This document shows, piece by piece, positions 43,197-48,146 of a stretch of DNA of 64,000 nucleotides. The notes under the pieces are model-generated. The model had not been told where the DNA came from, ran no database searches, and saw only the letters and a program-made list of their open reading frames with translations. The stretch's first letter is position 1; each line of letters begins with the position of its first letter. The DNA is taken from contig CAXXUA010000015.1 of NCBI GenBank assembly GCA_963663765.2, forward strand, positions 256,001 to 320,000, read 5' to 3'. The stretch is from Candidatus Poribacteria bacterium. GTDB lineage: Bacteria > Poribacteria > WGA-4E > WGA-3G. The position numbers were made by a program, and so were the translations under genes.

Positions 43197-43238
43197 AAGT
43201 AAATACCTTTCACACTAACTATTTCAACGGTCTAATCC

Positions 43239-43278
43239 AAAAAAAAATAATCCTCATTTGCACGATGCGAATGAGGAT
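43239..43278 (-). terminator. Rho-independent terminator after the HMA selenoprotein pair
   Basis: Minus strand: ATCCTCATTCGCA-TCG-TGCAAATGAGGAT followed by a T-run. Confidence 0.75.
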
Positions 43279-43345
43279 ATATAATATTATAGTAAATACT
43301 GATTTTAGATTCTTTTTAAAAAGAATAACAACAAACTAAAACTAT

Positions 43346-43684
43346 TTATTCTTCAAATAGTTGTGCTGTAAATCGTGGTTTTTTATCTACTTCTTCAACA
43401 GCTTCAATTGTGCTAATCAATGTTTCTATTTTGACCTTGTCTTTGTCAACCATGAGTACGACTTTGTTGTCTGAGTGTGAAACACTTAATACCTCAGTAA
43501 CGCCTGTCACCTTTTTGAGTGCATCCTGCACTTTTCCAGTACACACGCTTCAGACCATACCATTTACAGATAGACTTACTTCCTCAACCGATGCGTTTTT
43601 TGTGTCTTCTTTCTGTTGGTTCGCACAACCTATAACGATAAATACCATGAATAAACAGAATAATGACTTATTTAATATTTTCAT
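43346..43684 (-). CDS. HMA-domain lipoprotein, predicted selenoprotein (GMV-U-SVC, Sec45), 112 aa
   Basis: RBS GAGGA, lipobox VIGC, ...SLSVNGMV-TGA(43552-43550)-SVCTGKVQDALKKVTGV...; SECIS-like hairpin. Confidence 0.85.
43518..43532 (-). promoter_or_regulatory. SECIS-like hairpin
   Basis: AGTGCA-GGA-TGCACT at +18..+32 after the UGA. Confidence 0.7.
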
Positions 43685-43758
43685 GACTTCCTCTTATTGA
43701 ATATACTTTGTAATCTATAGAAAAGATGAAGGGCGAGTTTCCTCGCCCTTACAAGTCG

Positions 43759-44145
43759 TTAGTTAACGAGAGATGCTGTGAAGCGAGGATCTGCATCATC
43801 AATAGTCTTAATCAGAGCATCGTTTGTAATTTTACCCTTTTCAACTTTAACGACGACTTTCTTTGTTTGTCTGGAAACACTGAGTACCTCTACACCCGTG
43901 ACCTTTTTAAGCGCGGACCGCACTATACCAGGACACGATCCTCACGTCATGCCCTCAACATTAAAGGTCACTTCCTGATAGGTAGCTTTCTTAGGAGTCG
44001 AAACCGAGGTTTCACTCATCGCTTTTTCTCCTGTCGTAGACATAGCAGTTTCTTCAGCCATTTCTGTCTGTTGTCCGACCATGCCACAGCCTATCACGAA
44101 TGTAAAGGCAAACAGTGTAATCAGCGATAATCTTGCAATATACAT
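43759..44145 (-). CDS. HMA-domain lipoprotein, predicted selenoprotein (GMT-U-GSC, Sec68), 128 aa
   Basis: RBS TAAGGAGG, lipobox VIGC, ...VTFNVEGMT-TGA(43944-43942)-GSCPGIVRSALKKVTGV...FTASLVN-TAA. Confidence 0.87.
43910..43924 (-). promoter_or_regulatory. SECIS-like hairpin
   Basis: AGTGCG-GTC-CGCGCT at +18..+32 after the UGA. Confidence 0.7.
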
Positions 44146-44177
44146 TGTTTTACCTCCTTAATTATATACAATACTAT

Positions 44178-44205
44178 ATTATCATATACTTAAGTTAGTT
44201 GTCAA
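44178..44205 (-). promoter_or_regulatory. sigma70-type promoter for the HMA pair
   Basis: TTGACA-N16-GATAAT on the minus strand. Confidence 0.5.
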
Positions 44206-44246: not shown

Positions 44247-44996
44247 TTAATTGGATTTTTCTCTATGTGCATCAAGGAAAGGAAATACCTTTTGTAGTCT
44301 TTCAAGTTGTTTTTGTATAGCTGCTGCCCGTTCAAATTGTAGCAGGACGGCTGCGTTGTTACGTCTGGTAACAAGATTTTGCTGAACTTTTTCATATTCA
44401 CCATCAAGTAGATTGATAATGTTCATTATCATCTCTCTATAGAGTTCGCGTGTAATAAGTGCAGCACATGGTGCATAACAACGTTTCATGTCGAATTGTA
44501 GACAAGCGCGGTAGTCCTCTTGAGGGGTAATGGTTCCTTGACAGGTTCTAACCATAAAGATGCGTTGTAGTACATCTATTGCTTCATCAGTCCATTTACG
44601 ACTTGAAAGTGGACCGAAGTATCTTGCTTTATCTGATTGAATTTTTGGTACTCTTTCAAGTCGCGGAAAATCTTCAGCGACATTGATACGAATATACCAA
44701 GTTTGTGTACCATACTTTAAAGCAGAATTATAGGAGGGTTGATGTTGCTTGATGAGACGAGATTCTAAGAAGAGGGCTTCCTGTTCTGATTGGCAAATCT
44801 GATACTGTATAGTAGTCGTCCATCTTATCAGTCGTTTGATTTTTGACCGTCGGTTTTTGACTTTATGAATGTATGAACGTACTCGCTTATGTAGACATTT
44901 TGCTTTGCCGATATATAGAATTTTTCCTGTTGATCCGTAAAAGAAGTAGACACCTGGTACTGAAGGGATGTCTTCTACCATATCTTTCGTTAACAT
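44247..44996 (-). CDS. GIY-YIG nuclease, UvrC N-terminal/Cho-like with UVR domain
   Basis: PGVYFF...LYIGKAK.L..RVRSY, LES.LIK..QP.YN, YFGP, Cys cluster, QFERAA. Confidence 0.88.
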   Translation of the reverse strand: MLTKDMVEDIPSVPGVYFFYGSTGKILYIGKAKCLHKRVRSYIHKVKNRRSKIKRLIRWTTTIQYQICQSEQEALFLESRLIKQHQPSYNSALKYGTQTWYIRINVAEDFPRLERVPKIQSDKARYFGPLSSRKWTDEAIDVLQRIFMVRTCQGTITPQEDYRACLQFDMKRCYAPCAALITRELYREMIMNIINLLDGEYEKVQQNLVTRRNNAAVLLQFERAAAIQKQLERLQKVFPFLDAHREKSN

Positions 44997-45369
44997 TATG
45001 TTTCCCAACTACGTTACGATTGTTGTATATAGAGTTTTAGCAGGTTTAGATAGCAAAATCACTGATGAATTGAACCTGAAAAAACGACTTGACTTTGTAT
45101 CACATTTCTGCTAATTTACCGATATCTCTGACAAACAAACAATATATAAAATTAGGTGTTAACATAGAATTTTATATTGTCAATCTGATTAATTGCTTGC
45201 CGACTCTTTCGCAGCATAGTTTATCAACAATTTTGCTATTGACCTATATTAAATGACTACGTATAAAACACAGATGTGGTTACAAGTTGAGGTGTTTTTT
45301 TCAATAATTGTATTATCTTGTAGTTGTATTCATCAAATTAGCAGAATTTGATAGGAAGGATATAAGTTT

Positions 45370-46227: not shown

Positions 46228-47541
46228 ATGTCAAAACCGAACATCGTTGTTTATCTTTCTGATGATCATGGTTGGGAATATCTCGGTTGCTACGGAAATA
46301 CACACATCCAAACCCCACATTTGGATGGTATTGCTGAGGAAGGTTTACGTTTTACGCATGCGTTCACCCCGACACCGACTTGTGCCCCTTCCCGTTCTAC
46401 ACTTTATACTGGACTGTATCCAGCGCGGCATGGAGCTATGGGGAATCATACGGAATGTCACCCATCACTTGAAACATTACCAAAAATGTTAAGAAAACTT
46501 GGATATCGTGTAGCAATTGCAGGTAAGACCCATGTGAGACCTGAGTCGCTTTTTGATTTTGAATATGTCGGTGGATTCCTACCGAAAAACCCAGATCATC
46601 AAAGGAAATATCGTAGAGAAGGACTTGATTTAATTCCAGTTGAACGTTTTCTTGCAGACCATCGTCATGAGAACCCCGAACAACCAGTCTGCTTGATTCT
46701 TGGTGACAGCAATCCGCATGTCACATGGGAACCGAACAAAATCTACGATCACGAAGTTTTACCCCTTCCCCCATATATTGGTGATACTCCAGTTGCGCGA
46801 AAGGCACTTGCCAACTATTATCAGGACATAACGACAATGGATTCTCGTATAGGTGAAGTAGACAAGATGTTGGAAGATCAGGGTTATGCTGATAACACGT
46901 TATTTATCTATACAACTGACCATGGATCCGAGTGGCCGCATTGTAAATGGACATTGTATGACACAGGTATTCGTGTGCCGTTCATTGCACGGTGGTGTGG
47001 AGTAATACCTGCTGCAACTGTTACAGATGCGATGATTTCCCATGTTGACTTTCTACCAACGTTGATTGATGTTGCTGGTGGTGAACCGTCATCGGATTTG
47101 GATGGTATGAGTATTCAAGACGTTTTATGTGGTAAAAAATCATCGTTTCGTGATAAAATATACGGAACGCATACCAGAGATGGTAATATGAATGTATTTC
47201 CGCAACGGTGTGTTCGAGATAACAATTACAAATACATATTGAACTTAAATCCCGAAAATGTTTGGACGACCCATTTTACAGAGGTTGAGGGGATTCCAGA
47301 AAGTCATGCAGAAGTGTGGAACAGTTGGGTTGAAAAGGCAAAAAACCACCCTAATTCTGCAGAACTTGTATATTTAACACAACACCACCCTGTTGAGGAA
47401 CTGTATGATGTGTTAGCAGATCCTTTCGAATTCAATAATATAGCATTTGATGCAGCATATAGTCACATACTTGAAGAGATGCGTGAGTATGTTTGCAGAT
47501 GGATGCAATCACAAGGAGATAAAGGAAAACCAGAAGAATGA
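46228..47541 (+). CDS. Sulfatase (formylglycine type)
   Basis: SDDHG, CAPSRSTLYTGLYP, GKTH, TDHG. Confidence 0.93.
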   Translation: MSKPNIVVYLSDDHGWEYLGCYGNTHIQTPHLDGIAEEGLRFTHAFTPTPTCAPSRSTLYTGLYPARHGAMGNHTECHPSLETLPKMLRKLGYRVAIAGKTHVRPESLFDFEYVGGFLPKNPDHQRKYRREGLDLIPVERFLADHRHENPEQPVCLILGDSNPHVTWEPNKIYDHEVLPLPPYIGDTPVARKALANYYQDITTMDSRIGEVDKMLEDQGYADNTLFIYTTDHGSEWPHCKWTLYDTGIRVPFIARWCGVIPAATVTDAMISHVDFLPTLIDVAGGEPSSDLDGMSIQDVLCGKKSSFRDKIYGTHTRDGNMNVFPQRCVRDNNYKYILNLNPENVWTTHFTEVEGIPESHAEVWNSWVEKAKNHPNSAELVYLTQHHPVEELYDVLADPFEFNNIAFDAAYSHILEEMREYVCRWMQSQGDKGKPEE

Positions 47542-48146
47542 AGTTAAAAAGAAAAAACTATATCGCTTATAGTATATTGATTGTGAGTACGGTAGTGTGT
47601 CTTTCATGTTTGGATTCAGTTGATATTATGATAGATGATGTAACCACCGAAACGACGGTTACACAACCCGATCCGTTGCCTGCTGGTCAAGGTTTGGCGC
47701 CTGGTACAACAGCACCTGATTTTTCGCTACCCGATGCTAGTAATAATACAGTATCACTTTCCGGTTATTTGGATAAAATAGTAGTTATTCAGTTTTTTTC
47801 GACTGCATTGTGACCCAACTGTATAAACCAACTCAGTGAGTTGGATGGTGGTTATCAAGGCATTTTAGATGCGGGTGCAGATGAACTATTTGCTATAAGT
47901 GGTGATACAGTGTTTGGTCTAAATAGGGAATTAGGACATTTATCATTATCTTACCCAGTGCTTTCGGATTCAGATTTTTCGGTTGTTGACACATATAATG
48001 TGCGTGATGAGAGCAATCCAAATCAGGCAAATCCGACTGCATTTATTGTTGATGCAGATGGAGTTATCCAGTGGAAAGACTCTGGTCAAAGGTTTGGTCA
48101 TCGGACTACATCAACACAGATTATTAATGCGTTGAATGGATTGTAA
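47538..48146 (+). CDS. AhpC/TSA-type redoxin lipoprotein, predicted selenoprotein (U-P-N-C), 202 aa
   Basis: APDFSLPD...VVIQFFSTAL-TGA(47811)-PNCINQLSEL...FAISGD..YPVLSD..PTAFIVDADG is one thioredoxin fold across the TGA; ATGA overlap with sulfatase. Confidence 0.88.
47828..47844 (+). promoter_or_regulatory. SECIS-like hairpin
   Basis: CCAACTC-AGT-GAGTTGG at +15..+31 after the UGA. Confidence 0.65.

Follow-up and report, generated by a model that had tools for sequence, protein, structure and literature searches.

The window (the whole 64-kb stretch of DNA that was analysed) carries a tandem pair of small genes, which we call A and B. Each gene has a single in-frame TGA, and the lengths given here, 128 aa for gene A and 112 aa for gene B, count that TGA as U. 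The coding features are as follows.

43759..44145, minus strand: gene A, predicted 128-aa lipoprotein precursor, C-terminal HMA domain with putative Sec68 (GMTUGSC)
43942..43944, minus strand: putative Sec codon (UGA) of gene A, codon 68, at the first Cys of GMxCxxC
44086..44145, minus strand: predicted signal peptide and lipobox of gene A, MYIARLSLITLFAFTFVIGC, Cys20, read from the translation
43346..43684, minus strand: gene B, predicted 112-aa lipoprotein precursor, HMA domain with putative Sec45 (GMVUSVC)
43550..43552, minus strand: putative Sec codon (UGA) of gene B, codon 45, at the first Cys of the HMA motif
43625..43684, minus strand: predicted signal peptide and lipobox of gene B, MKILNKSLFCLFMVFIVIGC, Cys20, read from the translation

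The original prediction stated that the ORF track breaks both genes, that the TGA falls on the first Cys of GMxCxxC in each, and that reading through it gives complete HMA domains. We found all of this to be correct. Table 11 splits gene A into ORFs of 67 and 54 aa and gene B into ORFs of 44 and 66 aa. With the TGA read as U, the surrounding residues are VTFNVEGMTUGSCPGIVRSALKKVTGV in gene A and VSLSVNGMVUSVCTGKVQDALKKVTGV in gene B. The Pfam HMA model (PF00403) matches residues 60 to 117 of gene A with 44.9 bits and residues 38 to 95 of gene B with 32.7 bits; both matches run across the TGA and exceed the gathering threshold of 24.8 bits. The two genes are paralogs with 42% identity. We also searched the 6.35-Mb genome for a TGA followed by 6 nt, TGY, 9 nt, and a hairpin. 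This pattern occurs three times, in each case in one of three Sec-HMA genes, and the reversed control pattern occurs 0 times, which indicates that genes A and B are more than a chance arrangement. The third of these genes encodes a paralogous Sec-HMA domain fused to a cytochrome-c (PSCyt1, 37.5 bits)/WD40 protein.

Both precursors begin with a hydrophobic segment that ends in VIGC, with Cys20 as the lipobox cysteine in each, as had been predicted. These N termini match the classical lipobox, [LVI][ASTVI][GAS]C after a positive and hydrophobic region. All 55 family genes checked show a lipobox-like Cys downstream of a hydrophobic stretch, as counted with a regular expression looser than the classical lipobox rather than with a dedicated predictor. 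Thus, judging from the N-terminal residues, the mature proteins are probably lipid anchored in the periplasm via Cys20.

The genes flanking the pair encode PhyH, GIY-YIG, and sulfatase proteins, with no functional partner among them, and the GIY-YIG gene lies directly upstream in 5 of the 6 relatives' loci examined. As the original prediction held, no P-type ATPase or mer genes are adjacent; we found none within about 7 kb of genes A and B. In this genome, a gene for an exported Prx-like UxxC selenoprotein lies 3.4 kb away. The candidate expression signals are as follows.

44178..44205, minus strand: sigma-70-like promoter candidate, TTGACA-16-GATAAT
44153..44158, minus strand: RBS-like AGGAGG (in AAGGAGG), 7 nt 5' of the gene A ATG, read from the sequence
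43729..43750, minus strand: terminator-like G+C-rich hairpin with a T-rich tail, between genes A and B
43688..43695, minus strand: RBS-like AAGAGGAA, 5' of gene B, read from the sequence
43238..43278, minus strand: probable bidirectional terminator, stem ATCCUCAUU / AAUGAGGAU, 11-nt loop and U-run, read by eye

The purine-rich AAGGAGG and AAGAGGAA agree with the claim that both genes have an RBS. The promoter candidate, the only such site that the scan found upstream of either gene, matches the consensus at 11 of 12 positions, and this is a consensus match only, from a scan that gave 6 sites versus 4.2 expected in shuffles. The idea of one shared terminator did not hold up, since a terminator-like hairpin sits between genes A and B. 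The probable terminator 3' of gene B is common to the convergent PhyH gene; its 11-nt loop exceeds the scan's loop limit of 8, and it is thus outside the scan's list. RNA-library contigs from 4 of 4 runs (2 studies; two of the runs are identical records) cover positions 43350 to 44107, with both TGAs and both hairpins downstream of them unchanged, and they bridge the terminator-like hairpin. These contigs show presence only and are no proof of transcription, strand, or a single transcript. Parts of the stretch beyond 43350 to 44107 had no cover in the four runs, which says nothing about transcript ends.

We next consider how well the TGA is conserved. Gene A orthologs have exactly one TGA in all 25 genomes of the genus, at identities of 63 to 99%. 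At the 25 gene B loci of the genus, we found TGA in 23 and Cys in 1, and the gene was not found in 1. Apart from that one Cys copy, the close orthologs thus do not carry TGY. The TGA is conserved over four families of one Candidatus Poribacteria order. In a phylum-level genome set, 113 of 121 genomes gave a match, with 112 of 112 matching in families f1 to f4; among the matches listed, with 67 more lying outside that listing, all but 4 had exactly one TGA. The TGA is also present in 11 of 11 Poribacteria MAG loci. One and the same TGA column is common to 53 Sec sequences, down to about 35% identity; these sequences are related, and counts over them are not independent.

The TGA column of both genes aligns with Cys in PDB HMA proteins, and Cys stands in this column in gene B of locus L034, in L050, and in 6 further copies. 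We counted pairwise differences by codon position over the 17 codons after the TGA and found 576/971/1624 for gene A and 1231/1000/1694 for gene B. The differences peak at codon position 3, which suggests that translation continues past the TGA. A related-locus search of genome contigs gave 69 loci outside Poribacteria, with CxxC only; one back-translated pattern in this search held Cys codons, so Sec forms there could be missed, and the result gives no evidence that only Poribacteria have the Sec form.

A short hairpin follows the UGA in each gene.

43910..43924, minus strand: SECIS-like hairpin of gene A, AGUGCG-GUC-CGCGCU, +21 to +35 from the U of UGA
43518..43532, minus strand: SECIS-like hairpin of gene B, AGUGCA-GGA-UGCACU, +21 to +35 from the U of UGA

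It has a 6-bp stem and a loop of 3 nt, with G first, G or U second, and any base third, and the loop is 23 nt 3' of the UGA. Its stem sequence may resemble the apex of the Escherichia coli fdhF SECIS. The hairpin lies within the codons for the conserved V-(Q/R)-x-A-L with which helix 1 begins, and in gene A it codes for part of I-V-R-S-A-L. The RNAalifold consensus over the 53 Sec sequences is exactly this 6-bp hairpin, with 99% of cells paired. The closing pair is AU in 43, GC in 5, GU in 2, and other in 1; five of the six pairs are nearly invariant, so covariation rests on one pair. The codons that form the hairpin are strongly biased relative to the rest of the same genes: Val is GTG in 53/53 Sec copies versus 94/762 (12%) elsewhere, Ala is GCA in 52/53 versus 233/605, and Leu is CTN in 53/53 versus 86/175. 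Judged by this codon usage, the hairpin is under synonymous-site constraint.

The hairpin also goes with Sec rather than with Cys. In a further domain set, all six pairs are present in 7 of 7 Sec copies, and 2 to 5 of the six are present in 8 of 8 Cys copies. At locus L136, two Cys copies and a neighbouring Sec copy all code for SKVQDAL, and the sole difference between them in that stretch is a synonymous GTG>GTT change in the Cys copies, which breaks one pair. Pairs of this kind, a Sec copy with the hairpin beside a Cys copy without it, offer a clean natural benchmark for methods that predict bacterial SECIS elements. The bacterial SECIS (bSECIS) model of bSECISearch, as set out in PMC13188914, has a 3-nt apical loop, a 6-bp stem, a loop with G first and then G or U, a UGA-to-loop spacing of 16 to 37 nt, and an energy threshold of -7.5 kcal/mol. 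In loop size, stem length, placement of the G, and spacing, the hairpins of genes A and B fit that description (PMC13188914). Taken by itself, the core hairpin has a folding energy of -5.5 to -6.4 kcal/mol, which is weaker than the threshold, and only the 60-nt folds, at -18.4 and -17.7 kcal/mol, pass it. We do not claim the lower stem of the 60-nt fold, which is absent from the alignment consensus. An Rfam scan of positions 43300 to 44200 with E values up to 10 returned two chance-level matches and no SECIS family.

The original prediction called for Sec machinery in the genome, and we found it there. The genome has a tRNA-Sec (78.5 bits; ARAGORN call tRNA-SeC(tca)), selA (620.8 bits), selB (361.6 bits), which adjoins the tRNA-Sec, and a Sec-type selD (367.6 bits) with an in-frame TGA of its own. 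All four matches are above the curated cut-offs. Because the Sec machinery, the conserved TGA, the SECIS-like hairpin, and the constrained hairpin codons occur together, we conclude on comparative evidence, as distinct from protein chemistry, that genes A and B are genuine selenoprotein genes with putative UGA recoding via SelB.

We then compared the encoded domain with known structures. The AF2 model of gene A residues 55 to 128 has a pLDDT of 96.1 and the elements E2-10, H17-26, E31-37, E42-48, H54-64, and E69-72. The predicted order is thus beta-alpha-beta-beta-alpha-beta with a CxxC-type loop before helix 1, as in the HMA fold. The top Foldseek matches are HMA chains only; the best is MerP 1osd (TM 0.90, rmsd 1.2, 35% identity), the oxidised (disulfide) form of that protein. 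The family profile matches ATP7B, MerP, and CopZ chains in the PDB, and all 46 PDB sequence matches are to a metal transporter domain, a metallochaperone, MerP, or NmerA.

Among Cys-containing relatives, MerP (TIGR02052; 1osd, 1afi) is the most similar. It too is exported and has one HMA domain with a GMxCxxC loop, and it gives the best stand-alone PDB sequence match (61.5 bits). Of the NCBIfam models, TIGR02052 scores highest with gene A (57.3 bits), and it scores 33.4 bits with gene B; both scores lie below its equivalog cut-off of 92.55 bits. MerP differs in having Cys as its first ligand and a plain signal peptide, whereas genes A and B have Sec at that position, a lipoprotein signal, and a long linker and form a tandem pair outside any mer operon. 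CopZ/Atx1 proteins share the fold and loop (PDB matches include 6ff2, 1cpz, 2qif, and 1fee) but are cytoplasmic with Cys ligands, and the NCBIfam CopZ models score below cut-off (47.2 versus 91).

Comparison with selenoprotein catalogues, which had been suggested as a check, showed that Sec in HMA domains is already known as a kind. NF041115 ("UxxU_metal_bind") describes a small domain of HMA type whose metal-binding loop contains Sec. Among the NCBIfam models it ranks second for gene A (54.8 bits) and first for gene B (42.1 bits). In contrast to genes A and B, it is a 74-position domain-only model with two Sec residues (UxxU); genes A and B have a signal peptide, a lipobox, a linker, and UxxC. 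Their scores lie below its cut-off of 95, and UxxC is present in 53/53 aligned Sec copies. Entries in PMC13188914 and PMC9312934 show that NF041115 was earlier listed as a "putative mercuric reductase." NF045683, a MerT/CopZ fusion-like selenoprotein, has a CopZ/HMA-like part and a link to heavy-metal transport. It gives partial matches over the HMA part only (44.7 and 30.2 bits versus a cut-off of 375), and its MerT membrane domain is absent from genes A and B.

A P-type ATPase (E1-E2) selenoprotein with UxxC appears in the selenoprotein lists of PMC2398784, PMC13188914, and PMC9312934. As UxxC in a heavy-metal transport protein, it is a precedent for Sec at the first Cys, but it is a large cytoplasmic-membrane pump, whereas genes A and B encode the domain alone, in exported form. 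In such pumps, the Sec probably belongs to an HMA domain. The P-type ATPase encoded in this genome carries Cys in its HMA domain (GMHCEGC) and lacks the hairpin there. The exported UxxC lipoprotein family reaches no NCBIfam cut-off. We first accepted and then dropped the GOS "MerP" selenoprotein (PMC2398784, Table 2) as a direct precedent. In the supplement of that paper it is a 33-residue fragment (...AGTUCQSG...) without GMxUxxC and is thus no evidence that the UxxC lipoprotein family was described before.

Taken together, we consider it likely that genes A and B encode UGA-recoded Sec lipoproteins that act as periplasmic soft-metal chaperones with a Sec-x-x-Cys site, the chaperone role being deduced from fold and family. 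According to this model, each protein would be made with a Sec-type signal peptide and lipobox and anchored by a lipid on Cys20, followed by a disordered linker and one MerP/CopZ-type HMA domain whose metal-binding loop would be G-M-x-Sec-x-x-Cys. SelB and tRNA-Sec would read the in-frame UGA as selenocysteine, guided by the 6-bp hairpin. The selenolate/thiolate pair could then chelate a soft thiophilic ion, Cu(I) or else Hg(II), Ag(I), or Cd(II), and the bound periplasmic metal would be buffered or handed on. A Sec ligand would be deprotonated at sea-water pH, and a Sec site may be easier to keep in, or return to, the reduced state in an oxidising compartment. Since the genome gave no MerT match and no MerA match above cut-off, the choice of metal is a guess.

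A redox role is the strongest competitor. The products would then be real exported selenoproteins, and Sec-x-x-Cys would cycle between selenol/thiol and selenenylsulfide in thiol-disulfide exchange, peroxide defence, or electron transfer. The fusion of the third Sec-HMA domain to heme-c (PSCyt1) and WD40 would suit this role, as would the nearby Prx-like UxxC gene and the oxidised state of 1osd, the closest structure. Most UxxC selenoprotein families in the survey reported in PMC2398784 are thiol oxidoreductase homologs. However, the thioredoxin-like fold is absent here, the fold and the GMxCxxC loop are of the metal-binding HMA type, and the PDB sequence matches are uniformly to metal-handling proteins. 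We therefore regard a redox protein in place of a metal chaperone as distinctly unlikely.

The likeness to MerP raises the narrower possibility that genes A and B serve as the periplasmic MerP of a mercury-resistance system, in which Sec would increase the affinity for Hg(II). MerP is exported as genes A and B are, and it leads both the NCBIfam matches of gene A and the structural matches. Against this, the TIGR02052 scores fall short of the cut-off, and a search of the genome, which is 97.8% complete, gave no match to MerT. The best match there to the MerA model, at 390.7 bits versus a cut-off of 454.45, is no true MerA, and the vicinity is free of mer genes. The order-wide conservation and the fixed setting downstream of the GIY-YIG gene are also unlike a mobile mer operon. 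These data make membership in a mercury-resistance system very improbable.

The public record leaves room for two more readings of the TGA. In a collection of 5.8 billion proteins, we found the family only as TGA=Trp translations and one truncated fragment, which bears out the expectation that standard annotation misses these genes. Metal-homeostasis and selenoproteome surveys of sponge microbiomes would thus miss the family. Some public callers give the ortholog TGA as W (GMTWGSC; P0003 to P0005 and P0007), as if a variant code or leaky read-through placed Trp, Cys, or Gly there. However, TGA works as a normal stop codon in this genome: across the window, long table-11 ORFs remain unbroken and 6 of the 39 ORFs of at least 200 aa end in TGA, so that TGA is no general sense codon here. 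In the loci examined, it falls only where the ligand Cys would stand, and the codon that replaces it is one for Cys and never one for Trp; the hairpin accompanies TGA and decays in Cys copies, and we give this reading almost no credence. That the TGAs are true stops, leaving pseudogenes or short N-terminal peptides, would fit the broken table-11 ORFs and the one public gene call that is a truncated 77-aa N-terminal fragment (P0006), but it is scarcely credible given a single TGA in the same column of all 53 Sec sequences, an HMA domain intact on either side of it, codon-position bias that persists after it, a synonymously constrained hairpin 3' of it, and Sec machinery in the genome.

The soft-metal chaperone reading could be extended beyond the pair. 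Genes A and B belong to a larger set that is conserved in Poribacteria and includes the third Sec-HMA protein. In most species of the genus, a secreted His-rich protein of about 400 aa is encoded right after the gene A/B pair, and in one species it is fused to gene B. We speculate that Poribacteria keep a dedicated extracytoplasmic Se-dependent metal network made up of the two Sec-HMA chaperones, the cytochrome-c/WD40 Sec-HMA protein, and this His-rich protein, although we think such a network unlikely. The His-rich protein, from an unnamed family, would be a member in most species of the genus. Its selenolate sites would exchange a soft metal with a redox partner, as donor or as acceptor, and the purpose might be reductive detoxification or the loading of a secreted metalloenzyme. 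If it exists, this would be the first selenoprotein metallochaperone pathway outside the cytoplasm. Gene C (P0008) matched no Pfam family and falls only in "hypothetical protein" clusters of the Atlas, which give no family name. A search with P0008 as the query did not find it in the genome that the window comes from, so genes A and B cannot depend on it here.

To our knowledge, nearly all characterised selenoproteins use Sec as a redox catalyst. On the chaperone reading, Sec would instead serve as first metal ligand in a classical metallochaperone fold. The protein that carries it would be exported, and the Sec position is kept across a whole order of uncultivated sponge symbionts. Genes A and B would then offer a natural system for asking what selenium contributes at a metal site in the periplasm, be it affinity, soft-metal selectivity, or oxidation resistance. 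The sister genes with Cys are ready natural controls.

We found that genes A and B, two predicted HMA-domain lipoprotein genes in tandem on the minus strand, each carry a single in-frame TGA. The features of the pair are as follows:

44205..44178, minus strand: promoter-like site before gene A (consensus scan, TTGACA-16-GATAAT)
44145..43759, minus strand: gene A, 128 residues when TGA is read as U
43944..43942, minus strand: Sec codon of gene A, codon 68, motif GMTUGSC
43750..43729, minus strand: terminator-like hairpin between genes A and B (consensus scan)
43684..43346, minus strand: gene B, 112 residues when TGA is read as U
43552..43550, minus strand: Sec codon of gene B, codon 45, motif GMVUSVC
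43238..43278: second hairpin with a U-run, 3' of gene B (our own reading, absent from the consensus scan list)

The original prediction had held that ORF calls are broken in both genes by a TGA on the first Cys of GMxCxxC. This was borne out: under table 11, the TGA at codon 68 splits gene A into ORFs of 67 and 54 aa, and that at codon 45 splits gene B into ORFs of 44 and 66 aa. The Pfam HMA match runs across the TGA, scoring 44.9 bits for gene A and 32.7 bits for gene B (cut-off, 24.8 bits), and the two proteins are 42% identical. The RBS and VIGC lipobox claimed for both genes also stood. A purine-rich RBS-like motif, read directly, precedes each gene, and each N terminus has a short positive and hydrophobic segment followed by V-I-G-C, with the Cys at position 20. 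Genes around the pair encode two PhyH dioxygenases, a GIY-YIG protein, and a sulfatase, along with housekeeping functions; no P-type ATPase or mer genes are found within ~7 kb, in keeping with the earlier statement that none is adjacent.

The GIY-YIG gene (44247..45008, minus strand; ~250 to 280 aa) adjoins gene A upstream on the same strand, as it does in the related loci L054, L056, L058, L060, and L062; at L059, a GIY-YIG ORF upstream of gene A was not found. The GIY-YIG/PhyH synteny around the pair is conserved, without an evident functional link. The longest standard call at gene A is a 134-aa table 11 ORF antisense to it (43726..44130, plus strand), which is probably a shadow of gene A.

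The window's own genome (6.35 Mb in 15 contigs, 97.8% complete) encodes the four Sec machinery components, namely, tRNA-Sec (78.5 bits; ARAGORN call tRNA-SeC(tca)), selA (620.8 bits), selB (361.6 bits), which directly adjoins the tRNA-Sec gene, and selD (367.6 bits; L018, G000:C2:220603-221529, minus strand). The selD frame also contains one TGA, at the canonical site (KCAGUASKL), making it a selenoprotein gene as well. Otherwise TGA is an ordinary stop, ending 6 of the 39 ORFs of at least 200 aa in the window.

The TGA is conserved in relatives, with some alternation to Cys. All 41 related genomes have a match to the protein. Within the genus, gene A orthologs at 63 to 99% identity occur in 25/25 genomes, each with a single TGA and the GMTU..C motif. 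For gene B, 23 of the 25 genus loci encode U and one (L034) encodes Cys; the gene was not detected in L046, a 3.4-kb locus. The tandem UxxC pair is present in 11/11 Candidatus Poribacteria MAG loci. In a phylum-level draw, 113 of 121 genomes had a match (E ≤ 1e-6). By family, the counts were 81/81 (f1), 9/9 (f2), 19/19 (f3), and 3/3 (f4), and the same query gave 0/8 in families f5 to f8. Exactly one TGA was present in all but four rows among the matches listed, a count that leaves out 67 rows beyond them.

The HMA domain is intact on either side of the UGA. In the 17 codons after it, pairwise differences peak at codon position 3 both in gene A (576/971/1624 at positions 1/2/3) and in gene B (1231/1000/1694). 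RNA-seq contigs from four libraries of two studies (two of the runs yielded the same records and may represent a single data set) cover 43350-44107 at ~98% identity, with zero differences on either TGA or inside either hairpin described below. The contigs establish presence in RNA libraries; they are not proof of transcription, strand, or a single transcript.

A 6-bp hairpin occupies positions +21 to +35 in both genes, counted from the U of UGA (AGUGCG-GUC-CGCGCU in gene A and AGUGCA-GGA-UGCACU in gene B). The RNAalifold consensus over 53 Sec-containing sequences is exactly this hairpin, with 99% of cells paired, although five of the six pairs are nearly invariant and the sequences are mutually related. 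The closing pair varies (AU, 43; GC, 5; GU, 2; other, 1), and pairing is lost when the partner strand is slid as a control. Since the hairpin encodes a conserved V-(Q/R)-x-A-L, we examined synonymous sites. Val is GTG in 53/53 hairpins, against 94/762 elsewhere in the same genes; Ala is GCA in 52/53, the lone GCG retaining a G-U pair, against 233/605; and Leu is CTN in 53/53, against 86/175. A natural control, stronger than the synonymous-codon test, comes from loci with both Sec and Cys copies. We found 6/6 pairs in 7/7 Sec copies and 2 to 5 of the 6 pairs in 8/8 Cys copies. At L136, two Cys copies encode SKVQDAL, the same stretch as the adjoining Sec copy, and the sole difference within it is a synonymous GTG>GTT that breaks one pair. 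Arrays of three to five HMA copies, Sec and Cys mixed, occur in other genera of the same family (L136, L137, and L138, in genomes G073, G116, and G088).

The own genome also encodes a P-type ATPase whose HMA domain is of the Cys type and is without such a hairpin. Genome-wide, the full signature occurs three times, only at Sec-HMA genes, and a control with the pattern reversed gave 0 hits. The published bacterial consensus gives a loop of 3 to 9 nt, a stem of 4 to 16 bp, and a distance of 16 to 37 nt from the UGA (PMC13188914), with G in the first two loop positions and then G or U (PMC13188914, section 5/Fig. 2 legend). The spacing here, 23 nt, is inside that range, and the hairpin fits the bacterial SECIS consensus in loop, stem, and spacing. 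The core stem alone has −5.5 to −6.4 kcal/mol; only the 60-nt fold, whose lower stem is not conserved, reaches the −7.5 threshold. No Rfam family matches the hairpin region. On comparative evidence, sequence analysis could hardly make a stronger case for genes A and B as predicted selenoprotein genes, and the original observation is confirmed.

The novelty of the family had been left for comparison with selenoprotein catalogues, and Sec is already known from the metal loop of HMA domains. NCBIfam NF041115, "metal-binding (seleno)protein," has Sec in an HMA-type domain as UxxU, whereas genes A and B have UxxC and score at most 54.8 against its cut-off of 95. They also miss the cut-offs of NF045683, a MerT/CopZ fusion-like selenoprotein (at most 44.7 versus 375), and of the NCBIfam MerP model (at most 57.3 versus 92.55). 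Reviews list a UxxC P-type ATPase, a MerT-type "putative mercuric transport protein," and a UxxU protein (PMC2398784, PMC9312934, PMC13188914, PMC1976440). PF00403, "heavy-metal," "HMA," "lipoprotein," and "periplasm" are all absent from the main text of the 2026 review. A "MerP" selenoprotein in the GOS paper was rejected as a precedent; its supplement sequence is a 33-residue fragment without GMxUxxC. Outside the reviews' supplementary tables, we found no literature on Sec-HMA lipoproteins or Poribacteria HMA selenoproteins, and the sole paper found with both "Poribacteria" and "selenoprotein" is, in the part covered, about [NiFeSe] hydrogenases. A 5.8-billion-protein collection contains no near-length relatives beyond four TGA-as-W proteins and one truncated N-terminal fragment (P0003 to P0007), none of which carries a name. 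They come from short contigs, with TGA as Trp (GMTWGSC, GMTWGAC, GLSWGSC) or a cut at the TGA (77-aa fragment), and are mistranslations in public gene catalogues. The exported, tandem-duplicated, order-wide UxxC lipoprotein family is absent from the sources covered, review supplementary tables aside. It introduces no new principle; it is a well-supported selenoprotein family that has gone unannotated and that brings its own natural controls.

Modeled with AlphaFold from an alignment of 52 family sequences, the gene A domain has the order beta-alpha-beta-beta-alpha-beta (pLDDT, 96.1). In Foldseek, the model is closest to Ralstonia metallidurans MerP (1osd; TM, 0.90; rmsd, 1.2; 35% identity), followed by copper ATPase HMA domains and CopZ/Atx1. 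The family profile matches 46 distinct PDB sequences, every one of them a metal-transporter HMA domain, a metallochaperone, MerP, or NmerA, and 55/55 family genes have a lipobox-like Cys after a hydrophobic run. Because of this fold, these matches, and this conserved Cys, the best-supported reading is that the products would be lipid-anchored periplasmic HMA domains with a Sec-x-x-Cys metal site. Fold and family suggest a periplasmic soft-metal chaperone. Selenols have a low pKa and soft-metal affinity, and a selenenylsulfide is more easily reduced. Sec at the metal site might thus offer low pKa, soft-metal affinity, and easier reduction in an oxidising compartment. The main rival is a redox role for the Sec-x-x-Cys proteins in place of metal chaperoning. 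A mer system is disfavored because MerT has no match in the 97.8% complete own genome and the best MerA match there (390.7 bits) is under the cut-off of 454.45. If the chaperone reading holds, Sec would serve as a metal ligand outside the cytoplasm.

The third Sec-HMA gene of the own genome lies outside the window (L022:160-1743, plus strand, G000:C14). Its 527-aa product combines a signal peptide with a PSCyt1 heme-c domain (CQGCH, 37.5 bits) and a WD40 propeller and ends in an HMA domain with the motif VTGMTUGAC; the hairpin of the gene is as in genes A and B, AGTGCAGGATGCACT. Comparable matches, with one TGA in frames of 533 to 590 aa, occur in many genus genomes.

A secreted ~400-aa protein without a Pfam family is present in 30/37 genus genomes, directly downstream of gene B in most of them, and a search of the window's own genome did not find it:

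L058:6956-8188, plus strand: ~400-aa secreted protein (P0008, the "gene C" product)
L054:6468-7937; L060:6973-8166; L062:7076-8323: other copies

The protein contains a His-rich stretch (…HAEAVHNHGHQLE…), and in L054 and L024 it forms an in-frame fusion with gene B (80% identity over 375 aa).

Within the window, an exported AhpC/TSA (Prx-like) gene (47538..48146, plus strand; TGA at 47811..47813) encodes 202 aa when read through, with the UxxC motif FFSTALUPNC. It scores 83.9 bits against PF00578, versus 35.5 bits for the table 11 fragment, and a 7-bp hairpin, CCAACUC-AGU-GAGUUGG, begins 17 nt past the UGA. This is probably another selenoprotein gene split by standard ORF calling, and its product resembles already catalogued Prx-like UxxC selenoproteins.
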